DNA of 64,000 nucleotides from Candidatus Woesearchaeota archaeon. GTDB lineage: Archaea; Nanobdellota; Nanobdellia; SCGC-AAA011-G17; GW2011-AR18. Both the position numbers and the translations under genes were made by a program. The notes under the pieces are model-generated. The model worked only from the letters and a program-made list of their open reading frames with translations, did not search any database and was not told the origin of the DNA. This document shows positions 4,723 to 59,139 of the stretch, piece after piece. How positions within the stretch are numbered: position 1 is the first letter of the stretch; every line of letters begins with the position of its first letter. Where the stretch lies: the NCBI GenBank assembly GCA_018302765.1, contig JAGVZG010000001.1, positions 68,482 to 132,481 of the forward strand, written 5' to 3'.

Positions 4723-6333
4723 ATGACTAGTTTTACTGCTGATGAAATTGCTTTATTGGCAAGATATGTTTCGGACCCTAATGAAAATATATTTGTTGTT
4801 AGTGGATTAACCGGTATAATTGGTGCAGTTTATGCGCGTTATAGTAGATCACCAACAGGTTTTAGAGAGACATTTCTTAGAGAATTCTTGAATAATGGAA
4901 ATTTGGATCCGAGAAGAGCAGATGAATTAATAGAGAGGGTCTTGGTTGCATATGGTGATGATTCTGTTGGCGAACTTGAGGGGACTCATCTGTCTATTGA
5001 GAACATATCTATTTTAGCCACAAAAGAAATTGAAGACAGGAGAATAGGTGGCTCTCCAATAGAACAATCAACCAGGTACATAATATATAATACTAAAGAT
5101 GATAATGGGAGATTTAGGTTTTTTAGAGATCCTAAAATTATGGCTTCTGAATTTGGACAAAGATGTGAAGACACACTTAATTTTGTTTTTCAAACTTATT
5201 CTGAATTAGTCTCTTTATTGCAAGATTATTTTAAAAAATTAAAACCTATTGAAGATACACAGTATGCTATTAGAGCTGGAGATGAAAGGGAGTATATGCT
5301 TAGTGATTTATCAGAAGAAAGAGACTTAAGAGCTTTTAGATTGACTTATAAGAATGATATTAAGACAAAGGCATGTGATGTAACCAGAGTTTTATTACCT
5401 GCTGCAACATTAACCAATATTGGTATTTTTGGCAATGGAAGATTTTTTCAGGGTTTGCTTTCACATTTATATACGTTAGATGCTTTTGAAATGAATGATA
5501 TTGCTGCTAGGGCACATACTGCTTTGAATACAGTGATGCCAAGATATGTCAAGAGAGCTAGCCGTAGTTATTATCTGCATTCTGTTGATGAGAATATGAA
5601 AGATTTATCTAATAGTATTTTTAGCAGTGTAACTCCAGATAATGATGAGGATGTTGTTTTGCTTGATAATCCAAAGAATGATAAGGAGTATATGGATTTT
5701 TTATTGGCTGTAATGTTGTATAAATATTCATTATGTCCTATGAGGCAAATTAGAAGTGTTATTAGTAAATTACCAGATGAAAGAAAAATTGAGATTTTTA
5801 ATACTTATATTTGTAATAGAGAAAATAGAAGAAACAGGCCAGGCAGGGCTTTAGAATTTGGATATCCTTTGACTTTTGATTTAACTTTAGACTATGGAGA
5901 CTATAGGGATTTAGAAAGGCATAGAATATTGACACAAGAAAGACAAATGTTAACTCCTGATATTGATTTTGTAATATCTGATGAAATAGATGCAGTTGGT
6001 TTTAGAGGCAGAGTAAATGAAGCAGTTGAAAGGTCTGCTGAGCTTTATAATTTACTAAAGAAAGATTTTCCTTATGAAGCACAGTATGCTGTTTTACTTG
6101 GATTTAAAATTAGATGGATGGTGGGAATGAATCCTAGAGAAGCTATGCATATGCTGGAACTAAGAACTGGAAAGCAAGGCCATCCAAGATATAGGGCTAT
6201 GTGTCAGTCAATGCATAACTTGATTTCTCAGAGATGGCCTTTAATTGGTGAATCCATGAGTTTTGTTGACCATAGATCTTATTATTGGAGCAGAGCAGAG
6301 TCTGAAGCTGGTCAAAGAAGGAGAGAAAAATAA
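4723..6333 (+). CDS. thyX: long-form flavin-dependent thymidylate synthase-like protein (ThyX-like)
   Basis: Contains an RHR motif (DLERHRILTQE) and an ARYSRS segment reminiscent of ThyX. At 536 aa it is about twice the length of canonical ThyX. Confidence 0.5.
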   Translation: MTSFTADEIALLARYVSDPNENIFVVSGLTGIIGAVYARYSRSPTGFRETFLREFLNNGNLDPRRADELIERVLVAYGDDSVGELEGTHLSIENISILATKEIEDRRIGGSPIEQSTRYIIYNTKDDNGRFRFFRDPKIMASEFGQRCEDTLNFVFQTYSELVSLLQDYFKKLKPIEDTQYAIRAGDEREYMLSDLSEERDLRAFRLTYKNDIKTKACDVTRVLLPAATLTNIGIFGNGRFFQGLLSHLYTLDAFEMNDIAARAHTALNTVMPRYVKRASRSYYLHSVDENMKDLSNSIFSSVTPDNDEDVVLLDNPKNDKEYMDFLLAVMLYKYSLCPMRQIRSVISKLPDERKIEIFNTYICNRENRRNRPGRALEFGYPLTFDLTLDYGDYRDLERHRILTQERQMLTPDIDFVISDEIDAVGFRGRVNEAVERSAELYNLLKKDFPYEAQYAVLLGFKIRWMVGMNPREAMHMLELRTGKQGHPRYRAMCQSMHNLISQRWPLIGESMSFVDHRSYYWSRAESEAGQRRREK

Positions 6334-6407: not shown

Positions 6408-7349
6408 TTGATTAATCGTGAATATTTTAATTATGATATGTTAAGACTATTCTGGTATTTTGTATGTGAGAGACAGAGCGTCTGGTATAAGCGTTTTTGT
6501 TGTAAATTAGATCCGCCATGGACCAAAGATATAATTTTACAAAAAGAGAGATTTACTAATGTTTATAGAGAATTAGATCCTGGAACGATTTACGCTATTA
6601 ATAATATACTTGAGGTTGATGCTCCAAAACAAGATAAAATTTTCAATACCATGTTCTATCGTTTGGTTGGTAGTTCCAATACTCACAAAGAAGTTGGATT
6701 TCAGAAACTAAGTTATTTTAATCCAGAGCATTTAGAGGCAAAGATGAAATATATTAGGGACGTTGAAAAGAAGTCTGTTTTTACTGCAGCTTATATGGTT
6801 AGTGGTTATTCCAAAATGGGTTCAAAAGATAAGGTAGAAAATGTTGTCAGGTTATTTACCAAACTGAGAAATTCTTTTGACTCTATTTATTCAGATATTC
6901 AAGGTTGCAAGAATTCTGAAGAGGTTTATAATGTTATTAGAGGTTTGTATGGTTTTGGCAATTTTTTATCATATCAGATATTGGTTGACTTGCTTTATCC
7001 TTTGAGAATATGTAAAGGCAAGAGTCTTTTACCTTATTCACATGATGACTGGGCAAGTGCAGGGCCTGGAGCAAAAATAGGAATCGAATTATTATTGAAA
7101 AAAGGCTTAAAGTTTAGCAATCTTGATGTAATGATGTGGTTAAGAAAAAATCAGTGTGAAGAATTTTTGAGGTTTGGCTTAAATTTTAATTATTTAACTG
7201 ATGACAAAGGTGATAAAATTGAGCTGTCTTTAGCAAACATACAGAACTGCCTTTGCGAATTTCATAAATACATTAAGATTAGGGATGGAACTGGAAGAGG
7301 AAGAAGAAAGTTTACTAGTGGTTTTTTTAATGTAAACAAAATATCCTAA
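6408..7349 (+). CDS. hypothetical protein (Trp/Tyr-rich N-terminus, no P-loop)
   Basis: 313-aa ORF. Its stop overlaps the convergent HIT gene. It is adjacent to the ThyX-like gene. Confidence 0.45.
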   Translation: MINREYFNYDMLRLFWYFVCERQSVWYKRFCCKLDPPWTKDIILQKERFTNVYRELDPGTIYAINNILEVDAPKQDKIFNTMFYRLVGSSNTHKEVGFQKLSYFNPEHLEAKMKYIRDVEKKSVFTAAYMVSGYSKMGSKDKVENVVRLFTKLRNSFDSIYSDIQGCKNSEEVYNVIRGLYGFGNFLSYQILVDLLYPLRICKGKSLLPYSHDDWASAGPGAKIGIELLLKKGLKFSNLDVMMWLRKNQCEEFLRFGLNFNYLTDDKGDKIELSLANIQNCLCEFHKYIKIRDGTGRGRRKFTSGFFNVNKIS

Positions 7350-14060: not shown

Positions 14061-15521
14061 TTATTTAACATTTCCTATCGGAATTAATTTTGTTACAGGT
14101 TTAGAAATTCCTGCTTTAGCTAATGCATCAATTACGTCATTTATTTCTTTGTATGCAGATCCTGCTTCTTCAGCTAATCCAGACATTGATCCAGACTTAA
14201 CATAAATCCCTCTTTGTTCCATTTCTTTTTGTAGTTGATCTCCTCTAAATTCTTTCTTGGCTTGATGCCTTGACATTGTTCTGCCAGAACCATGTGCTGT
14301 ACTTGAGAAAGTTTCATTGTCTGCTTTTTCTGTACCGACTAATAAATAACTTCCTGTTTCCATTGAGCCGCCAATTATTACTGGTGATCCTATATCTCTA
14401 TATAATTTTGAAACCTCTGAATTTCCTGGACCCTGACACAAAGTTGCGCCTTTTCTATGAACAACTAATTTTTTCTTTTTTCCATCAATTTTAAATTCTT
14501 GTAATCTTGCTAAATTATGAGCTACATCATAGACACAGTGCATCTCCATATCTTCTGCTTTAGTTTTGAAAATTTTTTCAAAACCTTCTCTTATTCTATG
14601 TAAAATTACTTGTCTATTTGCGAAAGCCATATTTGCTGCACAAGCCATTGCTTTGTAATAATCTTGTCCTTCCTTGCTTGAAAATGGAGCACATGATAAT
14701 TCTTTATCTAAAATTTTTATTTTTTCTCTTTGCATTACATTTTCAAAAATTTTTAAGTAGTCTGTAGCAACCTGATGACCAAAACCTCTAGAGCCACAGT
14801 GGAACATTATTACAATCTGATCTGGAAAAATTCCAAATTTCCTTGCTATATCTTTATCAATAATATTTTCTGGTTTTACATGCTGAATTTCTAGATAATG
14901 ATTACCTGAGCCAAGTGTTCCTAGTTGATCAATTCCTCTTTGTCTTGCTTTTTGTGAAACTTTACTTGAGTCAGCCCAGTCAATTCTTCCATTACTTTCT
15001 ATTCTTTCTAAGTCTTTTTGCCAACCATAATTATTTTCAACACACCATTTAACACCTTCTTCCATTACATTATTGAATTGCTGATTATTTATTTTTACAA
15101 AACCTTTGCAGCCTACACCAGATGGTACTGTTTGGAAGAAAGTATTCACTAGTTCTTTTAATTTAGGCTGAACGTCTTTAATTGTGAGATTTGTTGTAAC
15201 AAGCCTCATGCCACAATTTATATCAAAACCAATTCCTCCTGGAGAGATTACTCCTGTCTCAGCATCCATTGCAGCAACTCCACCAATTGGAAAACCATAC
15301 CCCCAATGCCCATCAGGCATGCATAGTGCAGCTTTTTGTATTCCAGGTAGGCATGCTACATTGGTTACTTGGTCAAACACTCCGGGATCCATTGTTTCTA
15401 ATAATTTTTTAGTTGCGTAAATCCTTGCAGGTACGTTCATACCTTGCTTGAAACTAGTTGGGATTTCCCAAACTGCTTCTTCTATCTGTTTTGTATCTTT
15501 TGGTATATTTGACATAATCAA
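14061..15521 (-). CDS. rtcB: RNA-splicing ligase RtcB
   Basis: 486 aa. Metal-binding motifs typical of RtcB are present, including DGHWGYGFPIGGV, HCGSRGFGH and NHYLE. Confidence 0.9.
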   Translation of the reverse strand: MIMSNIPKDTKQIEEAVWEIPTSFKQGMNVPARIYATKKLLETMDPGVFDQVTNVACLPGIQKAALCMPDGHWGYGFPIGGVAAMDAETGVISPGGIGFDINCGMRLVTTNLTIKDVQPKLKELVNTFFQTVPSGVGCKGFVKINNQQFNNVMEEGVKWCVENNYGWQKDLERIESNGRIDWADSSKVSQKARQRGIDQLGTLGSGNHYLEIQHVKPENIIDKDIARKFGIFPDQIVIMFHCGSRGFGHQVATDYLKIFENVMQREKIKILDKELSCAPFSSKEGQDYYKAMACAANMAFANRQVILHRIREGFEKIFKTKAEDMEMHCVYDVAHNLARLQEFKIDGKKKKLVVHRKGATLCQGPGNSEVSKLYRDIGSPVIIGGSMETGSYLLVGTEKADNETFSSTAHGSGRTMSRHQAKKEFRGDQLQKEMEQRGIYVKSGSMSGLAEEAGSAYKEINDVIDALAKAGISKPVTKLIPIGNVK

Positions 15522-15724: not shown

Positions 15725-17041
15725 ATGGCAGACGTAGTTGTTCCGGATGGATCTAGCAGAGATGACGATACAGATAAAATTATAACTATAGATATGAGTG
15801 CAATAGCAGATGATACTACGCCTTTACTTCAACAAGTTCATAATGAAAAAAGTGAACCAATGGCTATACCTAATTCTTTAAATTTAAATCTTATTCATGA
15901 TACTAAAATTCATGAGCAAATTGAAGATTTGCGTGTTAGAGACTGTCCTAGTTTAGAAAAGGTTTTGATAGGTTTGGGATATGATGATTCACACAATATT
16001 GTTAATGTATCTGTAGAAGACGCTGATCCTATTTATTATAAGGTTGGAACTGGTCTTGTATTTCAAGTAGACTTAGAAATTAATATTGGTACGACTACAA
16101 GTGGTTTTGTTGGAATTGATTATAGGACATGTGAAATTCCGAATTTGCATGTTTTGGCAAGAAATTCTTCTAATTTAAATCGTAATAATAAATTAGCGAG
16201 CTTGTATAAGAAATGGGTAGATTTTAGTTATAAACATAATTTTAGTAAAATTGTAGGAATGATGGACAGCGATGATGTCGTTAGAATATTCAGAATTTTT
16301 GATTATGATAATATTGAAAATGTTGAAATTCATAAAGTTGAATTAGTTAAAAATGAATATTATTTAGAGGCTTCTTGTTTTTATAGATCTTCTGTTGGGA
16401 GTATAAAATCAAGTTTATTTTGTGGAAAAATTCCAGCGAGTAAAATTTTATTAGACGTACGTTATTTGGAAGCAAATGTGATGAATTTGAAGAGAAAATC
16501 TTCAGCAGGAAAAATTATATCTATTGGCGCTTTTGGACTTGCTAGTTTGCTTGGCTTAGCTTATTTAGGATTGAGTACTCAGGATGTTTCTGGCTATAGT
16601 CCTGATTTATTGACTTCAAGTGGCGGTGATTTAGTAAGTCCTGCAGATATGACGCTTCATGAAGATCTTAAGTCTGAATATTTAGGTGACGCTAGCAATG
16701 GCGTTGCGGTTGATTTAGGAAGTAGTTCTAGTCATCCACCAGTTAGAATTTCTTTTATGGCACGCAGACCTAAAACTAAGGGCAGTTTATTTGTTAAGGT
16801 TGGTGGTGCTTCAGATGGAAGACATGTATTTAAGTATACTGCTGGAAAAGTAGGTTCTTATAGTACAAAAACAGGTAAGCCATCTTTTTATTCAGATGCA
16901 TTTAATGATTGGGTTGGCACAACTGCTGACAAATATGAAAAAGTTGATTCAGACGGTGTTTATAATAATAAAAATTGCAACAAACCACAGAAAGGTTTAA
17001 TGAAAGATATGCCTGCTTATGTTTGTGCGCAGCCAAAGTAA
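15725..17041 (+). CDS. membrane protein P1: acidic N-terminal domain, central TM helix, C-terminal FKY/CKPQ/AYVC domain (paralog family)
   Basis: TM segment ISIGAFGLASLLGLAYLGL. The C-terminus (VRISFMARRPKTKGSLFVKVGG...VFKY...VYNNKNCNKPQKGLMKDMPAYVCAQPK) is near-identical in key motifs to the 32512 and 33830 proteins. Confidence 0.55.
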   Translation: MADVVVPDGSSRDDDTDKIITIDMSAIADDTTPLLQQVHNEKSEPMAIPNSLNLNLIHDTKIHEQIEDLRVRDCPSLEKVLIGLGYDDSHNIVNVSVEDADPIYYKVGTGLVFQVDLEINIGTTTSGFVGIDYRTCEIPNLHVLARNSSNLNRNNKLASLYKKWVDFSYKHNFSKIVGMMDSDDVVRIFRIFDYDNIENVEIHKVELVKNEYYLEASCFYRSSVGSIKSSLFCGKIPASKILLDVRYLEANVMNLKRKSSAGKIISIGAFGLASLLGLAYLGLSTQDVSGYSPDLLTSSGGDLVSPADMTLHEDLKSEYLGDASNGVAVDLGSSSSHPPVRISFMARRPKTKGSLFVKVGGASDGRHVFKYTAGKVGSYSTKTGKPSFYSDAFNDWVGTTADKYEKVDSDGVYNNKNCNKPQKGLMKDMPAYVCAQPK

Positions 17042-18176: not shown

Positions 18177-18611
18177 TTAAATGTCAACAAGCACTTTTGC
18201 TTTCCATTTGTCTTCTTCTTTTATTATTTCAAATTCATGCATTGTAATTGCCTTTGCATCGTCATGGAGATCCTGAGTTTCTCTGTTGATAAAATCACCT
18301 TCACATCTTGCAAATATTTCATATACTTTATTTTTGTGTGATATAACAACATCGAACTTGTTAAACAGCAAACCTTCTGTGTCTTTAACAAATATAAGTT
18401 CTGAAAGAAAATCATAAAGAAGATTTTCTATGGAATTTGTTTTTAGTGATATTTCATAATGCTCTTTAGTCTCCAATGTTTTTATGTCTACCATGATTTC
18501 TTCTAGAGCCAGAGCTGAATTTTCAAATAGGCTTTCTAATGTTTTTCCATAGGCTTCAAAAATTATATCTGCTGTGTGTGGTAGAAATTTATACTTCATC
18601 TTCTTTAACAT
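18177..18611 (-). CDS. archease (RtcB activator)
   Basis: 144 aa. The N-terminal FLPHTADIIFEAYG motif (HTAD) and a C-terminal ...KVLVDI match the archease family. Confidence 0.8.
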   Translation of the reverse strand: MLKKMKYKFLPHTADIIFEAYGKTLESLFENSALALEEIMVDIKTLETKEHYEISLKTNSIENLLYDFLSELIFVKDTEGLLFNKFDVVISHKNKVYEIFARCEGDFINRETQDLHDDAKAITMHEFEIIKEEDKWKAKVLVDI

Positions 18612-19053
18612 TCCTTCTTTCTACAACAATATTTATTTGCGTTGTCACACCTTCTTTATCTTCCCTTATTAAAATATTTCTGTCAGTTATTTGTTTTACA
18701 ATGTCTTTTATTGTGTAATCTGACTTCATTTTATCTCCAATCAAAACAGCATTTAGCATATATTCATTTGAAATTTGTTCTATTGTGATCTGCTTTATTG
18801 CTGATAATACAAATAACTCGTTATTTGCTAGTTCAAATAATCTTTTTAGAAATTGGAAAAGCAGATTTTTAAGATCCCTTGCTCTTATTATCAGTGTTTT
18901 TGTAATAGCTAGATCTATTTCTTCTGTGTTTATTACAATTTCAAATAATGACTTTGCTATTTTTGAGAACGATGCTTCTAAACTTGATGCTTTTTCTGAT
19001 ATTGTTATTTCTTCGACTTTGTGCTTTGACATAAGCTTTTTAATGCAATGCAC
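18589..19053 (-). CDS. archease-like paralog lacking the HTAD motif
   Basis: 154 aa. ASSLEASFSKIAKSLFEIV and ARDLKNLLFQFLKRLFELANNELFV align with archease core helices, but the metal-binding H-T-A-D is replaced by T-I-S-E. It overlaps the archease start by 23 nt. Confidence 0.45.
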   Translation of the reverse strand: MHCIKKLMSKHKVEEITISEKASSLEASFSKIAKSLFEIVINTEEIDLAITKTLIIRARDLKNLLFQFLKRLFELANNELFVLSAIKQITIEQISNEYMLNAVLIGDKMKSDYTIKDIVKQITDRNILIREDKEGVTTQINIVVERRNVKEDEV

Positions 19054-19144: not shown

Positions 19145-21649
19145 ATGGGAAAGGTTTTGAACTACGTAGGTAGAGGCATAAGAAATTTTGTTAGAAGGCA
19201 CAAGAAAGGGATTTCGCTAGCTGGAGCTTTAGTATTTGGCACTTCTGCTGCTTTAACTTGTGGCATTTATAAGTATATAACTACTCCTCCAAAGGATTTT
19301 GGAAGAGTAGGGCAATACTGGCATACTTACAAAGAACGTGAAAAATTAAAAAGTATAGAAAATAATGGTGCTTTAGAAAATAAGTTGAATATAAATAGAA
19401 AAGATAATGGTTCTTCAGGCGGGGCTTATCCTGATCCTAATATAATAGGCATTTGGCCGTTAACTCCGGATAACGGAATTAAGGTAGTTACTTCCAGTGG
19501 CAGAGAAATTGTTACTAGATACGCCACTTGGAACTATGCTTCTTTGGATGAAGTACCTAAAACTGTTATAAATTCTGTTTTAAGTGTAGAAGATGCAGAC
19601 TATCTTGAGCATAAAGGAGTAAACTGGAATTTAAGGAAGATTAAGGGTTTATTTTCTCCTATTCTTGGTGGAAGACGTGTTGGTGGAAGTGGCATAACAG
19701 AACAAGTATCTAAAATGATGTTTACTGATTTTGGTAAGATAAAGCCTAGGAGATCAGCAATGCAGAAACTTCGTGAGTTGCGTTATGCTTATTATTTAGA
19801 TAGTGTGCTTGGCAAGGAACAAGTATTAGAATTTTATTTGAATACAACGCCATTAGGAGACAGTTGTTATGGCGTAAAGTGCGCTGCTATGAATTACTTT
19901 GGTAAGGAACTGAGTAATTTAACTTTTCCTGAGAGTTTGTTTTTAGCAGCAATTATTAAAAATCCAGGAGCAAATCCAAAGAATAGTGGTTTTGAATTTC
20001 AAAAACGTAGATATGACATGCTCTGTGAGTCTTTGCACGATCTTGAAAGGATTACTGAAGATCAATATAAGGAGTGCAAATCTGCAGATGTGATTAAAAT
20101 GAAGCCTGGCTTAAAAAGAAGAAGATCTCCAATAAGTGATCCTAGTGTTTTTAGTGCTTTGGCTTATGAATTAGAAAATTATGATTTTGATTTAGTTGAC
20201 AATGTTGTTCATCAGCCAAATCCAGGTTTTGGGTTTACAGTTTATACTACAATAAATGATGAGATGCATGACGCTTTAGGCCAAGCATTTGTGGATGGAC
20301 TTAAACCAAATCAAGAACAGGTTCAACTTGGCGCTGGCGCTGTGCTGAATAGCGAGGCTCAAATAGTTGCTATTTTAGGCAGGACAGACTACAGTACGCT
20401 AAGCGGAGCTTGGAGTTTTAGGAATCTTGCTGTAGCTGGGAGACGTGCTGCTGCTTCTTCAATAAAGCCTTTTGTTTATGGTTCTTGCTATGACCAAGAG
20501 AATTCAAATATTACATGCAAACCAGGCAATGTTATTTCTGATTCTAAAAAAGGATTGAGAAATCCTCCTCATAATTTTGATGGAAAGTATGAAAGAAGAA
20601 TGTCTTTAGCAGAAGCTTTAACTTCATCGAATAATGTAATAGCTTATAAAGTGTGTCGTAGAATTGGACTTAGAAATGTACTTCCAGTTATAGAAGCTGT
20701 TGGATTTGATGTTGCTGAATATGAAACAGTATTTAGGGACTGCAGAAATACTGCTTTAGGCTCAGGGCGTGTAACTCCTTTAGAACTTGCTGCTGCTTAT
20801 CGTGTTTTTGTAAAAGACGATGATGGTAATTTTTCTGCAGAATATAGAAAGCCAACAATTATTGATAGGGTTGATTTATGGTCTTTTAATTACAAAGTAA
20901 ATCTATCTGCAACAAAAGTTTTTCGTAGTGCTAACACAGTTGAATCTGTTAGAATTAGCTTAGACAGGCTTGGAAATAAAATTGTTGGCAGTAAATATGA
21001 AGCAGATATAGGTTTTAAGACTGGCACTCCAAACCCCACTACACATTGGTATTTAGGTGGAGTTCTTGACCTTGATAGTGTTTCTTATTCTATAGGTTTT
21101 CTGGCTGTGGCTAAACCTAAAGTTGTACCTTCAAAAAAAAATCCTAAGGTTTTAGTAAAAGTTTATCCTAATAAGTTGTATGCTAGTGGCGTTCTTGGTC
21201 CTGTGGTAAAAAGTTTTGTTGACGGAGTTGCTCCTAGAAAAGAAATGAAGCCTATTGATCTATATGTTCCTGCTGTTGCTAGCTTGGACAGCGTATGCAG
21301 TAATTATAATTTAGCAAGCGTTGAGCTAACTTTGCCTAGTGCTGATAATCACGATCTTGAGACACTGGGAGATATTTTAAGTGCTTGCTCTTCTTATTTT
21401 TCTGCTAATAATGAAAATGAAAAGTATGGCTTATTTTCTTACGCTGCAGGCCGTGTCTGGGAGACTTTGTACAGTAATGAAGCAACGTCTTCTCCAGGCA
21501 GCAAAACTGCTTTGCTTTACTATAGCAGTGCAATTAATTCTTATAAAACAGCTGTTCAGGAAGACAGTTTTAGTAGTTTAGCTGAAGAAAGAATTAGAGA
21601 TTTAAAGATTAAAAGAGAACAGGAAGCTAATAGAATTCATGCAGATTAA
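19145..21649 (+). CDS. class A penicillin-binding protein (bifunctional GT51 peptidoglycan glycosyltransferase / D,D-transpeptidase), N-terminal TM anchor
   Basis: GT51 motifs EDADYLEHKG, GGSGITEQ, QKLRE and VLEFYLNTTPLG...YGVKCAAMNYFGK...LTFPESLFLAAIIKNP. Transpeptidase motifs SSIKP (SxxK), SSN (SxN) and KTGT appear with canonical spacing. A TM segment lies near the N-terminus. Confidence 0.8.
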   Translation: MGKVLNYVGRGIRNFVRRHKKGISLAGALVFGTSAALTCGIYKYITTPPKDFGRVGQYWHTYKEREKLKSIENNGALENKLNINRKDNGSSGGAYPDPNIIGIWPLTPDNGIKVVTSSGREIVTRYATWNYASLDEVPKTVINSVLSVEDADYLEHKGVNWNLRKIKGLFSPILGGRRVGGSGITEQVSKMMFTDFGKIKPRRSAMQKLRELRYAYYLDSVLGKEQVLEFYLNTTPLGDSCYGVKCAAMNYFGKELSNLTFPESLFLAAIIKNPGANPKNSGFEFQKRRYDMLCESLHDLERITEDQYKECKSADVIKMKPGLKRRRSPISDPSVFSALAYELENYDFDLVDNVVHQPNPGFGFTVYTTINDEMHDALGQAFVDGLKPNQEQVQLGAGAVLNSEAQIVAILGRTDYSTLSGAWSFRNLAVAGRRAAASSIKPFVYGSCYDQENSNITCKPGNVISDSKKGLRNPPHNFDGKYERRMSLAEALTSSNNVIAYKVCRRIGLRNVLPVIEAVGFDVAEYETVFRDCRNTALGSGRVTPLELAAAYRVFVKDDDGNFSAEYRKPTIIDRVDLWSFNYKVNLSATKVFRSANTVESVRISLDRLGNKIVGSKYEADIGFKTGTPNPTTHWYLGGVLDLDSVSYSIGFLAVAKPKVVPSKKNPKVLVKVYPNKLYASGVLGPVVKSFVDGVAPRKEMKPIDLYVPAVASLDSVCSNYNLASVELTLPSADNHDLETLGDILSACSSYFSANNENEKYGLFSYAAGRVWETLYSNEATSSPGSKTALLYYSSAINSYKTAVQEDSFSSLAEERIRDLKIKREQEANRIHAD

Positions 21650-21802: not shown

Positions 21803-23083
21803 ATGGCTAAGGCAAAACCACATTTAAACGTTGTATTTGTAGGTCACGTAGACCACGGAAAGAGCACTACAGTTGGGAGATTAATGTATGACGCAGGTGT
21901 TATTCCTGAGCAGGATATGAGAAAACTTAAGGAAATGGCTCAGCAGTTAGGAAAGGTTGGTTTTGAATTTGCTTTTGTTATGGATAATCTTAAAGAAGAA
22001 AGAGAGAGAGGAGTTACTATTGATTTAAGCCATAAAAAATTTGACACTCCTAAATTCGAATGTACAATTATAGATGCTCCAGGGCACAGAGATTTCATTA
22101 AAAATATGATTACAGGCGCTAGCCAAGCAGACGTTGCTTTCTTAGTTGTGGCTGCACCTGACGGAGTAATGGCACAAACTAAAGAACATGTTTTCTTGTT
22201 AAAGACTTTTGGTGTAAATCAGATTGCTATTGTTGTTAACAAGATGGACGTAGTAAAATATGACCAAGCTAGATTTAATAAAGTAAAGGAAGATGTAAGT
22301 GCTTTGTTAAAGTCTGTTGGATACAAGCCAGATCAAGTTAAGTTTATTCCAGCTGCTTCTTTCTTAGGAGATAACGTAGTGAAGAAGAGTACAAATATGT
22401 CTTGGTATACTGGATCAACTATCTTAGAACAAATAGATAATTTCAGTCCTCCTGAAAAACCAACAAACTTGCCGCTAAGATTGCCTTTGCAAGATGTTTA
22501 TAATATTACAGGCATTGGCGTTGTTCCAGTTGGTAGAGTTGAAACTGGAGTAATGAAAGTTGGCGATAAAGTGATTATAGTTCCTGGAAGGGAAGGAACT
22601 GGTATAAAAGGAGAAGTTAAAACTATTGAGATGCATCACGAGCAAATACAAGAGGCTGTTCCAGGTGATAATATAGGATTTTCAGTCAGAGGAGTTAATA
22701 AAAAAGATATTGCTAGAGGAGATGTTGTAGGACATGAAAATAATTCACCAATAGTTGTAAGTGAGTTTACAGCACAGATAGTTGTTTTAAATCATCCTAC
22801 AGTATTGACAGTTGGATACACTCCTGTATTTCATATACACACTGCACAAGTTGCTTGCCAATTTGTTAAGTTGTTAGCAAAACTTGATCCTGCAACAGGA
22901 CAAGTAATGCAAGAAAATCCTGACATGCTAAAGAACGGAGATGCAGCTAGGGTTGTTATAAAACCTACAAAACCTTTAGTAATTGAGAAACAGAAAGATA
23001 TACCTCAAATGAGTAGGTTTGCAGTTAGAGATGCAGGTCAAACTGTTGCTGCAGGCATGTGTATTGATTATGTGAAAAAGTAA
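21803..23083 (+). CDS. tuf: translation elongation factor 1-alpha (aEF-1A)
   Basis: 426 aa. [14 protein letters not shown] and the FKYAWV-like segment ([22 protein letters not shown]) are diagnostic of the archaeal/eukaryotic EF-1alpha form. Confidence 0.95.
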
Positions 23084-23185: not shown

Positions 23186-23497
23186 ATGCAAAAAGCAAGA
23201 ATAAAATTGGCAAGCGCTGAAATTGACTTACTCAATGAAGTAGTTAATTCTATAGTCGATATAGCTAAAAAAACTAATACTGTTATTAGAGGACCAATTC
23301 CTTTGCCAACTAAGAAATTAAAAATAACCACTAGAAAGTGCCCTTGCGGCGACGGCAGGGCTAGTTTTGATAGGTTTGAAATGAGAGTTCATAAAAGACT
23401 AATTGATTTAGGCGTTGATGAGAGAGCATTAAGATTAGTTATGAGAGTTCCTTTACCAAAAGGGGTGAACATAGAAATAAACCTTTTGGAGAAGTAA
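23186..23497 (+). CDS. rps10: 30S ribosomal protein S10
   Basis: 103 aa. The conserved tuf-rps10 order of archaea is present, and [11 protein letters not shown] matches the S10 loop. Confidence 0.85.
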
Positions 23498-27003: not shown

Positions 27004-27894
27004 ATGGTTTTGATAAGAAAAAAATCAATAGATAGCAAGGAGTATTATTATTTGGAACATTCATTTAGAGAAGCAGGTTCTGTCAAAAAAAAAGAACTTT
27101 ACTTAGGAACTGAGATTCCCAAAAATATTGAAGAAATCAAGATAAAATTTACTGAAGAAATATATAAAGAAAGATGGAGTAAAACATTAGAAGAGATAAA
27201 AAAAGAGTATAATAAAGAAAATAGATCAATACCAGAATCGTTAACTGAAAAAGAAATAGAATCTTTTATGATTAAATTTACTTATAATACTCAAAGGATA
27301 GAAGGTTCAAGGTTAACATTAAGAGAAACTGCAAATTTATTAGAAAAAGGAATAACGCCCAAAGAAAAACCTGTTAGAGATGTTAGAGAAGCAGAAGCAC
27401 ATAAAAAAGTATTCTATGAAGTGTTAAAATTCAAAAAAGACTTGTCATTAGATTTAATTCTTCATTGGCATAGAATGTTGTTTTTAGAAACAAAAAAAGA
27501 TATGGCTGGAATACTAAGAAAACACCAGGTTGCAATATCTGGGAGTAAGTTTATACCTTCCTCTCCTGTAGAAGTTTATTTATTATTAAGGGAATTCTTT
27601 AAATGGTATGAAAAAAATAAAAGTAAGATAAATCCTGTAGAATTAGCAGCATGCGTTCATTTAAAATTTGTTACAATACACCCATTTGGAGATGGGAATG
27701 GGAGAATATCAAGACTGATGATGAATTTTGTTCTCAAAAAAAATAAATATCCAATGTTAAATATAAAATATGAAGGAAGAAATAGTTATTATAATGCGCT
27801 TGAAAGATCGCAAGTAAAGAAAAATGAAGGAATATTTATACAATGGTTTATAAAAACTTATATAAAAGAAAATAAAAGATATTTGAAGAAATAA
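27004..27894 (+). CDS. fic: Fic-family protein (AMPylase-type) with putative inhibitory helix
   Basis: Fic motif HPFGDGNGRISR (HPFx[DE]GNGR). An upstream TQRIEG matches the [ST]xxxE[GN] auto-inhibition motif. Confidence 0.8.
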   Translation: MVLIRKKSIDSKEYYYLEHSFREAGSVKKKELYLGTEIPKNIEEIKIKFTEEIYKERWSKTLEEIKKEYNKENRSIPESLTEKEIESFMIKFTYNTQRIEGSRLTLRETANLLEKGITPKEKPVRDVREAEAHKKVFYEVLKFKKDLSLDLILHWHRMLFLETKKDMAGILRKHQVAISGSKFIPSSPVEVYLLLREFFKWYEKNKSKINPVELAACVHLKFVTIHPFGDGNGRISRLMMNFVLKKNKYPMLNIKYEGRNSYYNALERSQVKKNEGIFIQWFIKTYIKENKRYLKK

Positions 27895-32511: not shown

Positions 32512-33774
32512 ATGTCTATTAAAAATTGGACAATAGGTGGCCTTGGTGCACTTGTTTTAGGACTTGCTGCTTCTTCTTTAACTTGTAAGCCTTGCAATGA
32601 TTTAGCAAGAAAAGTTAGTGGTAAAGAACTTCCTTTATTTGGTCGTGTTAATGGAAATACGCAAAACAAAAATCCTGCTCCTTTGCCTAAGCCTCATGTT
32701 GCAGATGACGAACCTGCTGCTGACGAAGGTAGTAGTGATGATAGTTCTGAAAAAACTACAGAATCTGCAGAAGTAGAATCAAAAAGTTCTGGTTCATCAG
32801 ACGCAGATTCTTCTTCTAAAAAACCTAGTTTTGTTAAAGTTGGCAATGTTGGAAATAAAGACGTATTCAAATATGACTTAGGTAAAGTTAGGGATGGAGA
32901 GGGTTCATTTTTGTACGCTGTTAGATTTAATAAATGGGACGACAGTTCTGAAGGAGACACCTATAAAAAAGTTGGTCAAAATGATGTTTACAATAATAAA
33001 AATTGTAAGCCACAGAAAAATTTTATGAAAGGTATGCCTGCTTATGTTTGTGTTCTTCCTAATAATGGGGAAAGTGGAGACACTCCTGGAGATGCTGGTG
33101 ATCGTGCTCCAAATAATGTTGAAGTGAGGTCAGATTCTGGTGCAGTTGCAACAACAGATCCTACATCTACTCGAACTTTGCACGTAGCAATAGAACGTCC
33201 AAGTTCTCCAGATCTTGGTTCAGATTCTGGCGTAGGCAGTTCTGGAACAATTGAATTAGTTGTTAATCCTTATGCTAATGCTACTGAGACAGCAACTCCT
33301 GCTGAGAGTGGCGACTCTGAAGATGATAGTTCTGGCGATACTTACGATGAAGATGCTGCTGGCACTTCTGGTCGTCGTGATTATACTGACCCTTTTGGCG
33401 TTGTTTTGTCTGGCGACCCAGTTGCAGCACAATATGGCACTGCAATAATAAGTGGTTTTAATGAAGCTTATCAAGATAAATATAGGACTAAGAACAGCGG
33501 TAAATGCTTAAGTGTAAATATTGGTTTAGAATACGCTGTTGGAGCAAAAGGCGAACTTGTTAGTATAAGGGGATATTTTTGTGGGGACTTAGAATCATGC
33601 GCTGGAAGAGGAAAACTTTATTTGGATCAACCTCATGATTCTAGTTTAGATGAAAATTTTACTTTTGGAAGAGAGCTGATTAAGGTAATAAGAGTAGAGA
33701 ATTCTAAAAGGCCACTTGTTTCTGTCAAAAGAGGAAACTACGTAGGTTCTATAATTGAATTTGGTTGTGAATGA
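32512..33774 (+). CDS. secreted protein P3: signal/TM N-terminus, acidic Ser/Asp/Glu-rich low-complexity linkers, FKY/CKPQ/AYVC domain (paralog family)
   Basis: N-terminal hydrophobic segment GGLGALVLGLAASSL. The KKPSFVKVGNVG...VFKY...VYNNKNCKPQKNFMKGMPAYVCVLP domain matches the C-terminus of the 15725 protein. Confidence 0.55.
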   Translation: MSIKNWTIGGLGALVLGLAASSLTCKPCNDLARKVSGKELPLFGRVNGNTQNKNPAPLPKPHVADDEPAADEGSSDDSSEKTTESAEVESKSSGSSDADSSSKKPSFVKVGNVGNKDVFKYDLGKVRDGEGSFLYAVRFNKWDDSSEGDTYKKVGQNDVYNNKNCKPQKNFMKGMPAYVCVLPNNGESGDTPGDAGDRAPNNVEVRSDSGAVATTDPTSTRTLHVAIERPSSPDLGSDSGVGSSGTIELVVNPYANATETATPAESGDSEDDSSGDTYDEDAAGTSGRRDYTDPFGVVLSGDPVAAQYGTAIISGFNEAYQDKYRTKNSGKCLSVNIGLEYAVGAKGELVSIRGYFCGDLESCAGRGKLYLDQPHDSSLDENFTFGRELIKVIRVENSKRPLVSVKRGNYVGSIIEFGCE

Positions 33775-37127: not shown

Positions 37128-37871
37128 ATGTTATACTTAATTGGACTAGGATTGGGAGATGAGAAGGATTTAACTCTTAATTCTCTGGACGTTATTAAAA
37201 ACTGCAGTTTTGTTTACTTAGAAAATTATACTTCTTTTTTAGTATTTGATGTTAAGAAATTAGAATCTTTAATTGGCAAAAATGTTATTTTAGCAGAAAG
37301 GGAGTTTGTTGAAACCAGTGATGAAATGATTAACAATGCTTTAAATTCTGATGTTGCATTTTTAGTAAAAGGTGATGTTTTTTCCGCAACAACGCATGTG
37401 GACTTGTTTTTGAGAGCAGTTCATCATGGCATTAGGTGTAGTGTTTTGCATAATTCTTCCGTGCTTACAGCTGTAAGTGATACTGGATTAAGCTTATATA
37501 AATTTGGAAGAGTTGTTTCTATACCTTTTGATTATAATAATGTTTACAGTTCTTATGAAACATTTTTAAGCAACGGAGATTCACATACACTTTTCTTACT
37601 AGACTTAAAACCCAGTGAGAATAAATTCATGAACTTTAAAGACGGATTTAATTATTTATTAAATAAAAGTGGAGAAAGAAATGACAGTAGAATTGGCCTT
37701 GACACTATGTGTGTTGTTTGCGCAGCATTAGGAACTGATAAGGCTGTTATAAAATATGGCAAGATCTGTGACTTATTAAATTTTAATATTGATGCTTACC
37801 CGCAGTGCATTATAATTCCTGGCAAGACGCATTTTGTTGAAGAAGAAGTTCTTAATTTATTTAGACTATAA
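37128..37871 (+). CDS. dph5: diphthine synthase
   Basis: MLYLIGLGLGDEKDLT at the N-terminus, and a tetrapyrrole-methylase fold pattern characteristic of Dph5; 247 aa. Confidence 0.8.
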   Translation: MLYLIGLGLGDEKDLTLNSLDVIKNCSFVYLENYTSFLVFDVKKLESLIGKNVILAEREFVETSDEMINNALNSDVAFLVKGDVFSATTHVDLFLRAVHHGIRCSVLHNSSVLTAVSDTGLSLYKFGRVVSIPFDYNNVYSSYETFLSNGDSHTLFLLDLKPSENKFMNFKDGFNYLLNKSGERNDSRIGLDTMCVVCAALGTDKAVIKYGKICDLLNFNIDAYPQCIIIPGKTHFVEEEVLNLFRL

Positions 37872-45804: not shown

Positions 45805-45878
45805 TTAAACTCTAACTTCAATTTTTCTTCTATTGTCTAGGTCTTTAAGAAGCTCTTGTCCTAATTTGGATTTTTTAT
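45805..45878. repeat. 74-bp direct repeat, copy 2 of 2 (native 3' end of the ATPase gene)
   Basis: Identical to 45244-45317. Confidence 0.85.
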
Positions 45879-47628
45879 TTATTTTTAATTCTGCTTTATT
45901 TCCTATAGTATATGTTAACAAAAAATGGCCATCAACGTAAACTTCTGCTATTTTTCCTGCATGTTCTTGGGGAAGTTTGAATACTAATGCTTTTTTTGAT
46001 TCTTCAACTTTATAATTTATAGGAATTTTATCAGACTCTTCATTTTCTATAACTTCTTTTAGTTCTTTTACTGTTAGACCAAAACCTAACTTTTTTTCTA
46101 TTTGAGAAATGTTCTTGCCTTCTTTGCCTATGAATTTAGCTATTTCATCTTCTGGAAGATATACTTCTGCTCTGTTATTATTTATTATTTTTACTTTGAC
46201 ATCATTAACATAAGCTCTAAGTTCTCTTTCTAGTTGTTTTGCTGCTAATGCTTTTGTAGGATCATGCAAGAATTCTTCTTGTACAGGAATTACTACTGTT
46301 TCTTCACCATAGCTGTATATTTCAAATTCTAGTTTGTTTGTTATATAATCACGAACTTCAATTACAGGTCTTGCAAGGTCTGCTTCTGTCATCCCAGAAG
46401 GGACTTTTACTATCATTTGTACTGTAAGTATTCTTGAGACATTTCCTTTTTCTATAAATATTAAAGTATCTAGAACACTTGGAATCATACCAACTTCTAA
46501 TCTTCCAATAAATCTTTGTATTGCATCTATGGGGGTAGCTGCATGTAATACTCCTAAAACATTTGATCCACCTAATCTTAAATCTGTGAATAATATAAAA
46601 TCTGGAGTATCTCTCATTTCATCAAATATAATATAATCAGGCCTTGATAAAAACAAAATGTCATGGATTTCTTCTGAGCTTGCTAGATTTTTACTGTACT
46701 GCGTAACGTCTTTGCTTAGAATTAAACTTCTAGGACTTTCTATTGTTTTTGTTATAAAACTATTAGTTGCATAATATTCTGCTAGAGATTGTGCGAAGGT
46801 AGATTTTCCAGATCCCGTAGTGCCAGCAATTATAACACCTCTTGCTTTTGTCTTTACTCTTTCTGCTATGTTAGTTGGTAAATTATAATCATCAATTTTT
46901 AAGACTTTAATCGGTCTTACAGCAGTTATTTCCCAGCCGTCAGAAACTGGTGTTTTAGTTATTACTATTCTGTAATTTTTGTATTGAACTATTGTTGATC
47001 CAGGTCTTGAAATTTCAATAAATGCATCAGACTCTATCCTTGATCTTTCTACTATTTCTTTTGCCATTTCTTGTACTTCTTGTTGAGTTAGAATATTTGT
47101 GGCTACGTCTAATAATTTCCATTCTCCTGGCTTTCCTTTTTTAGCCCTTGGAGGGCAACCTTCTCTCAGATGCACAGACATTGTTTCATAATCAAAATAT
47201 TGTTCAATTTCTAAAGCTTCTGTTAATTGCCTATGTGGAGAATATATTACTTCTACGCCTAATGCTTTTGCTGATTCTGCTTGTATTCTATCTGCTGTAA
47301 CCAGAATAGCTCCTTCATTGTAGGCAATATCCCTTATTATAGCATCTATCTCTCCACCTTGTTTTGCATAAGCAATTTGATAGAGGTTTGGACGTTCTCC
47401 TGTAAACATTAGTGTTATTTTTCCTTCTTTGAATAGCTTTTGTAAGTTTTGAACTTCTTCTAAACCTAGAAATCCAATCTCTTGGCCTGTGTTAGCCTGG
47501 TGTTCTAGTTCAGCCATTACAGCTTTAGGCACTATAATTTTACCTGAAATTTTCTTAGATTTGATAAACTGAGACACTAGGCGTTCTACAACTACAGATG
47601 TATCAACAACATATGTTTTTTCTTCCAT
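45805..47628 (-). CDS. PIN-domain + PhoH-like ATPase + KH-domain protein (archaeal PilT/PhoH2-like)
   Basis: N-terminal PIN (VVDTSVV), Walker A AGTTGSGKST, and a C-terminal KH GxxG (IGKEGKNI); 607 aa. Confidence 0.7.
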   Translation of the reverse strand: MEEKTYVVDTSVVVERLVSQFIKSKKISGKIIVPKAVMAELEHQANTGQEIGFLGLEEVQNLQKLFKEGKITLMFTGERPNLYQIAYAKQGGEIDAIIRDIAYNEGAILVTADRIQAESAKALGVEVIYSPHRQLTEALEIEQYFDYETMSVHLREGCPPRAKKGKPGEWKLLDVATNILTQQEVQEMAKEIVERSRIESDAFIEISRPGSTIVQYKNYRIVITKTPVSDGWEITAVRPIKVLKIDDYNLPTNIAERVKTKARGVIIAGTTGSGKSTFAQSLAEYYATNSFITKTIESPRSLILSKDVTQYSKNLASSEEIHDILFLSRPDYIIFDEMRDTPDFILFTDLRLGGSNVLGVLHAATPIDAIQRFIGRLEVGMIPSVLDTLIFIEKGNVSRILTVQMIVKVPSGMTEADLARPVIEVRDYITNKLEFEIYSYGEETVVIPVQEEFLHDPTKALAAKQLERELRAYVNDVKVKIINNNRAEVYLPEDEIAKFIGKEGKNISQIEKKLGFGLTVKELKEVIENEESDKIPINYKVEESKKALVFKLPQEHAGKIAEVYVDGHFLLTYTIGNKAELKINKKSKLGQELLKDLDNRRKIEVRV

Positions 47629-57375: not shown

Positions 57376-59139
57376 TTATTTTTTAACTATGTCTAATTTT
57401 ATATTAAGTTCTTTTAACTGTTTTTCATCAATGTCGCTTGGTGAGCCATCCATAGGACATTGAGCTGCTTTGTTTTTTGGAAATGCTATTACTTCTCTAA
57501 TGTCTTTTAATCCTATTAGTAGTGTAACTAATCTGTCTAAACCTATACCAACTCCTCCGTGTGGCGGACCAGCATACTTATATGCTTCAAGTAAAAATCC
57601 GAATTTCTTTTCTGCTTCTTTTTCACTTAACCCTATTATTGAGAATATTTTTTTTTGTATTTCTGGTTTGTGGATACGTAAGCTTCCTGAGCATAATTCT
57701 ACTCCATTTAAGACAAGATCATAAAGTGTTGCATATACTTTACCTGGATCAGAATCTAAAAATTTAATATGTTCTTGCTTTGGCATGCAAAACGGATGAT
57801 GTTCTGGTTCCCATTTTTGTTCTTCTTCATTCCATGCAAAAAGTGGAAAGTCTGTAATCCAGCAGAATTTATATTCATTTTTTGGAATGGTTTTAAGTTT
57901 TTCTGCTATTGCTAATCTAACTTGACCAAGCGCAGTGCAAGTAGTCTTGAAACTGTCTGCTATAAATAATAACAAATCACCTTCTTTTGCTTTTGTTACT
58001 TTTATTAATTCTTTTTGTAATTTTTCATCTATATATTTTGTAATTGAACTTTCTAGTTTTCCTTTTTCTACTTTTGCCCATGCCATTCCCTTAGCGTGAT
58101 ATCTTTTTGACAGTTCAATTAATTCATCAATGTCTTTTCTTGAGAAATTGGAGCAGCCGACTGCATTTAGACATTTAATTAATCCTTTATTTTTAACTGC
58201 TGACTTAAATACTTCAAAATCTGAATCTGCAACAGTATTAGTTACGTCAATTAATTCTAAATTAAATCTTAAGTCTGGCTTGTCAGATCCGTATCTTGAC
58301 ATTGCTTCATTATAAGATAATCTAACAAATGGTTTTTTGATTTTTATATTTCTTGTTTTAAATACTGCTTCCATTAATCCTTCTACAGTTTTAAATATGT
58401 CTTCTTCAGTAACAAAACTCATTTCTATGTCGATCTGCGTGTGCTCTGGCTGTCTGTCTGCTCTTAGATCTTCATCTCTTAGACATCTAGCTAATTGAAA
58501 GTATCTATCGCAGCCAGCCACCATAAGAATTTGCTTATATAATTGTGGGCTTTGAGGCAGGGCATAAAATTTTCCAGGATTTATCCTGCTTGGAACTAAG
58601 TAATCACGTGCTCCTTCAGGAGTTGGTTTTACGAGCATTGGTGTTTCTATTTCTAGGAATCCTTGAGACGATAGATATTCTCTTGCAGCTTGGGCAGCTT
58701 TATGCCTTATTAACAAACGTTCCTGCATTACAGGTCTTCTTAAATCTAGATATCTATATTTTAGTCTTATTTCTTCATTTGCTTCTATTCTGTCATCAAT
58801 TTCAAAAGGCGGAATTTCTGATTCATTTATTATTTCTAGTTTTTTAACCTCTACTTCAATTTCTCCTGTTATTAGTTTTTTATTTTCCATTCCTTTTGGT
58901 CTTTCTCTTACTTTACCTTCTATTTTTATACACCATTCTCTTCTTAGCTTATTTGCATCTGGAATTTTACTTGGATCTAGAACTACTTGGGTAAAACCAT
59001 ATTTGTCTCTTAAATCTATAAAGATAATACCGCCATGATCTCTTCTAGAGTTAACCCAACCACATAACTTAATCTCTTTTTTAATATCTTTACTTGTAAG
59101 TTGTCCACAAGTGTGGGTTCTTAGTGTTGTTGTTAACAT
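57376..59139 (-). CDS. aspS: aspartyl-tRNA synthetase, bacterial-type (with GAD insertion domain)
   Basis: 587 aa. N-terminal OB fold (GGIIFIDLRD) and class II motifs (FRAD...QPEHTQIDIE; GGVGIGLDRLV). Confidence 0.85.
   Translation of the reverse strand: MLTTTLRTHTCGQLTSKDIKKEIKLCGWVNSRRDHGGIIFIDLRDKYGFTQVVLDPSKIPDANKLRREWCIKIEGKVRERPKGMENKKLITGEIEVEVKKLEIINESEIPPFEIDDRIEANEEIRLKYRYLDLRRPVMQERLLIRHKAAQAAREYLSSQGFLEIETPMLVKPTPEGARDYLVPSRINPGKFYALPQSPQLYKQILMVAGCDRYFQLARCLRDEDLRADRQPEHTQIDIEMSFVTEEDIFKTVEGLMEAVFKTRNIKIKKPFVRLSYNEAMSRYGSDKPDLRFNLELIDVTNTVADSDFEVFKSAVKNKGLIKCLNAVGCSNFSRKDIDELIELSKRYHAKGMAWAKVEKGKLESSITKYIDEKLQKELIKVTKAKEGDLLLFIADSFKTTCTALGQVRLAIAEKLKTIPKNEYKFCWITDFPLFAWNEEEQKWEPEHHPFCMPKQEHIKFLDSDPGKVYATLYDLVLNGVELCSGSLRIHKPEIQKKIFSIIGLSEKEAEKKFGFLLEAYKYAGPPHGGVGIGLDRLVTLLIGLKDIREVIAFPKNKAAQCPMDGSPSDIDEKQLKELNIKLDIVKK

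Follow-up and report, generated by a model that had tools for sequence, protein, structure and literature searches.

A complete class-A penicillin-binding protein encoded in the chromosome of a woesearchaeal archaeon that lacks the lipid II pathway

Bacterial class-A penicillin-binding proteins (PBPs), such as PBP2 of Staphylococcus aureus (2olu, 2olv, 3dwk), PBP1A of Haemophilus influenzae (5u2g) and PBP1b of Escherichia coli (3vma, 5hlb), consist of a transmembrane anchor followed by a GT51 glycosyltransferase domain and a transpeptidase domain. In archaea, GT51 was found in none of 101 genomes (PMC3541169) and no murein-bearing species has been reported (PMC3541169, PMC10117817). Murein-directed enzymes of the degradative kind are known from archaea: lytic transglycosylases of Woesearchaeota and Pacearchaeota have been proposed to target the bacterial wall and taken to indicate that bacteria are the hosts or prey of these archaea (PMC8204110, PMC9723730), and the killing of bacteria by archaeal peptidoglycan hydrolases has been demonstrated (PMC12352652). 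A search of the accessible literature for class-A PBPs in DPANN archaea found no description. Here we analyze a window of 64,000 nucleotides (the whole stretch examined, positions 68,482 to 132,481 of contig JAGVZG010000001.1, assembly GCA_018302765.1) from a tiny groundwater archaeon (Candidatus Woesearchaeota), in which an 834-aa open reading frame (ORF) with an ATG start, at window positions 19145-21649 of the forward strand, encodes a class-A PBP, hereafter P0001. It is a known kind of enzyme in an unexpected host and context.

P0001 shares with the bacterial class-A PBPs the order of the domains, the five GT51 motifs, the SxxK/SxN/KTG triad and the fold. The glycosyltransferase domain is recognized by the Pfam profile Transgly (PF00912, E 2.3e-38, 131.9 bits against a cut-off of 27, aa 128-292; 136 bits in the scan of the genome) and the transpeptidase domain by PF00905 (E 1.1e-10, 41.7 bits against a cut-off of 22.1, aa 404-632). 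GT51 motifs 1 to 5 read EDADYLEHKG (with E149), GGSGITEQ, QKLRE (with E211), KEQVLEFYLN and RRYDML, both catalytic glutamates being present, and the acyl-serine triad follows in the order SSIKP (S438/K441), SSN (S495/N497) and KTGT (625-628). P0001 is confirmed as a complete bifunctional class-A PBP with all its catalytic motifs intact, as the original prediction, made from the letters alone, had proposed; every motif that it quoted was found in its place, and the profile searches that it suggested support both domains above the gathering scores. The single N-terminal anchor that it had also named coincides with the hydropathy peak at aa 23-42, the strongest hydrophobic 19-mer beginning at aa 23, behind an RRHKK stretch. 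By the positive-inside rule, this would be a type-II anchor that leaves the catalytic domains outside the cell. The features of the gene are as follows.

19145-21649, forward strand: whole PBP gene, encoding the 834-aa class-A PBP P0001 (ORF, Pfam, AF2 model, Foldseek)
19211-19270, forward strand: N-terminal membrane anchor, aa 23-42, after RRHKK (hydropathy maximum, helix in the model; predicted topology)
19277-19525, forward strand: clade-specific juxtamembrane segment, aa 45-127 (residues invariant in six orthologues, model)
19526-20080, forward strand: GT51 glycosyltransferase domain, aa 128-312 (PF00912, residues kept across the clade)
19589-19591 and 19775-19777, forward strand: catalytic GT51 glutamates E149 and E211, respectively
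20081-20353, forward strand: interdomain linker region, aa 313-403 (model, alignment to PBP2 and PBP1b structures)
20354-21244, forward strand: acyl-serine transpeptidase domain, aa 404-700 (PF00905, invariant triad)
20456-20467, 20627-20635 and 21017-21028, forward strand: transpeptidase sites S438/K441, S495/N497 and KTGT (625-628), respectively
21245-21646, forward strand: clade-specific C-terminal all-helical (TPR-like) domain, aa 701-834 (helices 714-833 in the model)

Structure prediction, another check that had been proposed, yielded a confident PBP fold (AF2 model from a 90-sequence alignment, pLDDT 89.0, pTM 0.82, superseding a model from a 9-sequence alignment with pLDDT 62.8). The top 27 Foldseek matches of this model are all class-A PBPs, with E values down to 4.8e-26, the best being S. 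aureus PBP2, E. coli PBP1b and the PBP1A proteins of Acinetobacter baumannii and H. influenzae; the target-normalized TM-score against S. aureus PBP2 (2olu) is 0.69. A phmmer search of the PDB sequences agrees, with a match to 5u2g (E 6.3e-30), and identity to the solved class-A PBP structures amounts to 16-20%. Unlike bacterial class-A PBPs, P0001 is devoid of the OB/ODD (PF17092) and UB2H inserts, and it carries an extra juxtamembrane segment and a TPR-like C-terminal domain, in an archaeal host without a lipid II pathway. The juxtamembrane segment contains conserved GQYW and PD...P...N.I motifs and, in the model, a long helix (aa 57-86); its residues G56, W59, P96, D97, P105, N110 and I112 are invariant among six orthologues, as are C718 and C748 of the C-terminal domain. 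No sequence family was found for this latter domain, and its structural neighbors are only weakly similar TPR-like folds (TM-score about 0.6). P0001 also scores below the trusted NCBIfam cut-offs for PBP_1a_fam (225.5 against 508.75 bits), PBP_1c (160.8 against 494.2 bits) and PBP_1b (116.2 against 717.75 bits), and it is not a member of any bacterial PBP subfamily named in that database.

The genes surrounding P0001, whose archaeal character the original prediction had rightly emphasized, are the following.

14061-15521, reverse strand: RtcB, 486 aa, upstream of the PBP gene
18177-18611 and 18589-19053, reverse strand: tandem archease pair (E 6.9e-40 and 1.5e-14), overlapping paralogues, divergent from the PBP gene
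21803-23083, forward strand: aEF-1alpha, starting 153 bp downstream of the PBP gene
23186-23497, forward strand: ribosomal protein S10, which together with aEF-1alpha forms a set of native archaeal genes anchoring the PBP gene in the chromosome
37128-37871: Dph5-like TP_methylase

Class-A PBPs are a bacterial hallmark and metagenome-assembled genomes (MAGs) can be chimeric, so that an artefact, in which an archaeal MAG had received bacterial DNA by mis-joining or mis-binning, has to be considered. Several observations make this explanation vanishingly improbable. The contig that contains the window spans 132.7 kb and belongs to a 1.02-Mb genome (G000; other G numbers denote compared genomes) that is 100% complete with 1.15% contamination. 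An identical PBP protein, in the gene order RtcB ... archease x2 - PBP - EF-1alpha - S10, occurs on at least 22 independently assembled contigs (ENA, JGI, Logan), and PBP orthologues adjoin the same archease pair in G001, G005, G006, G017 and G021 and on the contig of the homologue P0146, a synteny kept across genera and studies. Related loci, searched for with a conserved stretch of six orthologues (the 9-sequence alignment offered none), were found among named records in Candidatus Woesearchaeota MAGs in every case, from different studies and including GW2011_AR18. The closest relatives of the PBP are themselves encoded in archaeal contexts. The GC content of the gene and of its third codon positions (0.362 and 0.217) matches that of the native EF-1alpha gene (0.365 and 0.23), and a compositional trace of recent transfer is absent. 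Since the many independent contigs and the conserved synteny exclude a chimeric assembly, which the original prediction had wished to see checked, the artefact explanation is already refuted as far as assemblies allow, and the PBP gene is a genuine, long-resident chromosomal gene of a Woesearchaeota (DPANN) archaeon. The archease pair, which adjoins the PBP gene in several genera and whose second copy diverges much faster (37-76% identity), is a synteny marker of the PBP gene in other Woesearchaeota, for which we claim no functional partnership. As a separate observation on this neighborhood, the RtcB ORF of G001 (L014:2495-5455, reverse strand) is 986 aa long against 486 aa in the window, with 88% identity in the shared part, which suggests that it carries an intein or a fusion.

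When 1.84e9 representative sequences were scanned in full with HMMER, 12 PBP relatives were recovered at 478-200 bits (34-39% identity) and, below 180 bits, a continuous cloud of weaker PBP matches; a word-indexed homologue search returned only P0001 itself and distant bacterial PBP1A sequences at about 145 bits or less, missing the archaeal family. Two of the relatives had already been named 'penicillin-binding protein [Candidatus Woesearchaeota archaeon]' by the NCBI pipeline. The next-best matches, P0134 and P0135, adjoin Lon_C, L11, ArgRS and a PUA/DUF1947 gene, an archaeal context, and P0155, encoded on a 697-kb contig with a long RelA/SpoT gene, is probably bacterial. In phylogenetic trees of sequences aligned to the profile with hmmalign, IQ-TREE (LG+C20 PMSF) recovered a 15-row Woesearchaeota clade (support 96), its extension to 18 rows by P0134, P0135 and P0155 (support 99) and a clade of 21 rows that takes in further DPANN sequences (support 97), all three also obtained with FastTree. 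The PBP clade to which P0001 belongs evolves fast, and nearly all of its members whose context is known come from DPANN archaea. The remaining DPANN PBPs branch among other rows of the tree (one of them beside a Paceibacterota PBP), most of which were labeled bacterial by assumption, some being named bacterial and the rest being of unchecked origin. A single origin of all DPANN PBPs was rejected by the approximately unbiased (AU) test (p 8e-48), for a group defined after the tree had been seen and containing short contigs, such as L035 (7.3 kb), that could be mis-binned.

GT51 is present in 9 of the 27 genomes of the family to which G000 belongs and in none of the 213 genomes of the 28 other families of the order; within the order it is confined to this one family. 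Across the phylum it was detected in 20 of 401 sampled high-quality genomes. The gene is of bacterial type and rare in archaea. The other GT51 proteins of the phylum have the same domain pair as P0001 and mostly the same orphan status, but, unlike the P0001 clade, several of them branch among named-bacterial or unchecked rows. A second, long-form group with GT51 and transpeptidase domains (1059-1350 aa) exists in genus g13 of the same family (L016:6726-10385, L019:2096-5272 and L020:6892-10941, all on the reverse strand). Its members have a large insert between the domains, a glutamine in place of the motif-3 glutamate and a KTGT motif far downstream, and they form their own clade with L044.

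The PBP diverges much faster than its conserved neighbors. Between G000 and its genus-mate G001, identity is 95% for EF-1alpha, 89% for S10, 88% for RtcB and 74-76% for the archeases, against 32% for the PBP, a value similar to those of other predicted surface proteins of the region (22-30%). Despite this low identity, E149, D150, E211, S438, K441, S495, N497 and the KTG motif are identical in all 13 family representatives, and the same catalytic residues are kept in nearly every row of the wider clade, at overall identities of 26-40%. Such a pattern fits a working enzyme whose surface would be under diversifying or relaxed pressure.

Genes for the synthesis of the substrate of this enzyme were searched for in five PBP-bearing genomes, G000 (100% complete) and G001, G006, G017 and G021 (73-95%). 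The scan for murA-G, mraY, flippase and ddl genes advised by the original prediction came back almost empty: no Mur_ligase_M, MurG (Glyco_transf_28), MurA/EPSP_synthase or FtsW/RodA (FTSW_RODA) was found in any of the five genomes, and Ddl in one only (G021). The PBP itself was the sole transpeptidase, and no second PBP, SEDS polymerase or recycling gene set was found. The single GT4 protein of G000 reaches 46 bits against an mraY cut-off of 192, and a candidate 'MurJ' match in this genome (28.8 bits) was rejected, being in reality a Wzx/Polysacc_synt flippase (27 bits against a murJ cut-off of 235). Compared with the minimal three-gene set for peptidoglycan, namely GT28, GT51 and GH23/73/102-104 (PMC3541169), G000 has GT51 and GH23/SLT, GT28 was not found and the set is incomplete. 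G000 cannot make lipid II and its PBP is an orphan with respect to this pathway. As Mur ligases, MurG, MurA and FtsW/RodA were not found, the idea that the lineage makes murein by itself is not supported. Another 19 genomes of the phylum carry a PBP, including one that consists of a single 1.3-Mb contig; with the exception of G454, each contains at most one Mur-ligase-like match of about 400 aa, probably of the FPGS type. In G454, two strong Mur-ligase genes adjoin a monofunctional GT51 gene of 284 aa on contig C37 (L048), and a third is found on contig C26; either this DPANN genome has a real, partial murein cluster or a bacterial contig was mis-binned. The GT4 gene of G000 and the gene of the rejected 'MurJ' match both lie in one cluster (contig C10:33000-49000, L063), on a different contig from the PBP gene. 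The cluster comprises the GT4, two Wzx-type flippases, a PEP mutase fused to a nucleotidyltransferase, a phosphonopyruvate decarboxylase-like TPP enzyme and an Fe-ADH, and its composition suggests the production of phosphonate-decorated glycans.

G000 also encodes murein-cutting proteins. On contig C26 (L064:7255-14025, reverse strand), a 2257-aa protein carries an SLT domain (aa 1883-1936) and a Peptidase_M23 domain (aa 2105-2202) near its C-terminus, and the second SLT protein of the genome is 380 aa long. SLT domains are present in 21 of the 27 genomes of the family; proteins of 2100-2400 aa like that of G000 are also found in G001, G003, G008, G013 and G018. They recall the lytic transglycosylases of Woesearchaeota and Pacearchaeota, surface enzymes of the same lineages that are directed at the bacterial wall, but those are degradative GH23 enzymes whereas P0001 is of the synthase type (GT51 and DD-transpeptidase). 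Pfam detects no SLT domain in P0001, which places it outside the large lytic-transglycosylase proteins of the fam00969 type (PMC8204110). The archaeal peptidoglycan hydrolases, prominent in Nanoarchaeota, are, like P0001, horizontally acquired murein-directed enzymes, but they are hydrolases with shown antibacterial activity whereas P0001 is a predicted synthase/transpeptidase (PMC12352652). A functional analogy for an invader that both cuts and re-links the murein of another cell is offered by the remodeling of the prey wall by a bacterial predator. Bdellovibrio reportedly uses DD-endopeptidases and L,D-transpeptidases to modify and re-seal the sacculus of its prey, as experiments are said to have shown; in that case both invader and prey are bacteria, and the enzyme families differ from that of P0001.

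As the genome has no lipid II synthesis, we infer that the PBP acts on the murein precursors or the peptidoglycan of a bacterial partner. Among the three options that the original prediction had left open, interaction with such a partner fits best, and a murein-like layer is not supported, since almost none of the lipid II genes was found. The interpretation that we favor, with about even confidence, is that of an outward-facing bifunctional enzyme, anciently acquired from bacteria, that would act on the lipid II or peptidoglycan of a bacterial partner where the two cells touch. At this contact the PBP would stand beside the archaeon's own murein-cutting surface proteins (SLT, M23). Its GT51 domain would bind or extend glycan strands, and in its transpeptidase domain D-Ala-D-Ala stem peptides would be captured as an acyl-enzyme and then cross-linked or trimmed. 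Together, the two domains might remodel, re-seal or hook onto the host wall, the acyl-enzyme step providing a covalent engagement. Judged from the protein and its genomic context, a function with a bacterial partner is plausible. Several points weigh against it. GT51 enzymes normally draw their lipid II from their own anchoring membrane, so the lipid II of a partner could be reached only if the cells were in very close contact or lipid passed between them. The PBP gene is accessory, with only 9 of the 27 family genomes having it, and SLT domains are near-universal in the family with or without a PBP, so that co-occurrence does not discriminate. Scores below all the NCBIfam subfamily cut-offs mean that substrate specificity may have drifted.

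The habit of GT51 enzymes of drawing on their own membrane keeps alive a rarer alternative, in which the archaeon receives lipid II from its host and polymerizes it on its own side. The PBP, anchored in the archaeal membrane where a GT51 domain normally meets its substrate, would then polymerize and cross-link host-derived lipid II or undecaprenyl-linked precursors into a murein or murein-like layer of the archaeon itself. Any substrate must be imported, since there is no endogenous pathway, and DPANN archaea commonly depend on their hosts for lipids; the conserved residues of both activities would also suit this alternative. A structural wall is, however, hard to square with a gene missing from two thirds of the family, not even a partial Mur, MraY or MurG step accompanies the PBP, the second PBP, SEDS polymerase and recycling set that were sought are likewise missing, and archaea with murein have yet to be reported (PMC3541169, PMC10117817), all of which makes an archaeal layer of this kind quite unlikely. 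We are very doubtful that the family polymerizes and cross-links host-drawn lipid II into a murein structure of its own or shared with the host, for example a collar or bridge at the contact site.

Two other alternatives do away with murein synthesis. The presence of GT4, two Wzx flippases and the phosphonate cluster in the genome, together with the high divergence of the PBP beyond the NCBIfam subfamilies and its clade-specific N- and C-terminal segments, could speak for an enzyme re-purposed for an endogenous non-murein polymer, that is, a polyprenyl-PP-linked glycan made by the GT4/Wzx cluster and bearing a peptide to be cross-linked or processed. Yet in both domains, GT51 and transpeptidase, every residue involved in lipid II contact and D-Ala-D-Ala chemistry is exactly as in bacteria, the genome has no D-Ala-D-Ala ligase or peptide ligase to provide a stem peptide and the PBP gene is unlinked to the cluster, so that we hold such a re-purposing to be highly improbable. 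Alternatively, P0001 might serve mainly as an adhesin or sensor for bacterial stem peptides or glycan strands, possibly through a long-lived acyl-enzyme tether and without net wall synthesis. Its very fast evolution, as in host-recognition surface proteins, its TPR-like C-terminal domain and its accessory distribution would agree with this role, and some PBP-like domains are sensors, as in BlaR/MecR and the PASTA kinases. We nevertheless find it unlikely: in a protein that only binds, some motifs should have been lost, as happened at motif 3 (E to Q) in the long-form sister group, whereas P0001 keeps both GT51 glutamates and motifs 1-5 besides the serine triad. The exact retention of catalytic residues in both domains argues against re-purposing and against a role in binding only.

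Several other genes of the window deserve mention. The original prediction had considered a possible functional connection of the PBP with a family of secreted paralogues encoded at 15725, 32512 and 33830, which did not hold up. The proteins at 15725-17041 and 32512-33774 (both forward strand) match no Pfam family and share one 84-aa stretch with 51% identity, the 743-aa ORF at 33830 has no detectable relation to either of them, and none of the three resembles the PBP. The 32512-33774 protein has a hydrophobic N-terminus, and the genus-mate orthologue of the 15725 protein is 22% identical. A 536-aa protein with two Thy1 (ThyX-like) stretches (4723-6333, forward strand) adjoins a 313-aa protein with the helical domain of 5-hmdU DNA kinases (6408-7349, forward strand; HMUDK_hel, E 4.9e-57), a pair typical of phage thymidine-hypermodification systems that is here found in an archaeal chromosome. 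The aspartyl-tRNA synthetase (57376-59139, reverse strand) has the GAD insertion domain of the bacterial type and thereby adds to the bacterial-type genes of this archaeon. The window further encodes a Fic/DOC-domain protein (27004-27894, forward strand) and a fusion of a PIN domain with a T2SSE/PilT-like ATPase (45805-47628, reverse strand). A search of the window against Rfam gave no match.

The GT51 domain and class-A PBPs count as markers for Bacteria and their peptidoglycan, and here an intact one has long been kept in an archaeal lineage that is unable to make its substrate. GT51 matches in metagenomes are consequently no proof of bacteria or of a sacculus. The picture of the interactions between DPANN archaea and bacteria is widened, from cutting the bacterial wall to possibly rebuilding it or grafting onto it. 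If host-drawn lipid II were indeed polymerized, the archaeon would be the first to synthesize murein, and its symbiosis would be founded on a cell-wall precursor stolen from the host. The PBP also gives a practical means of finding out whether some Woesearchaeota live on bacteria.

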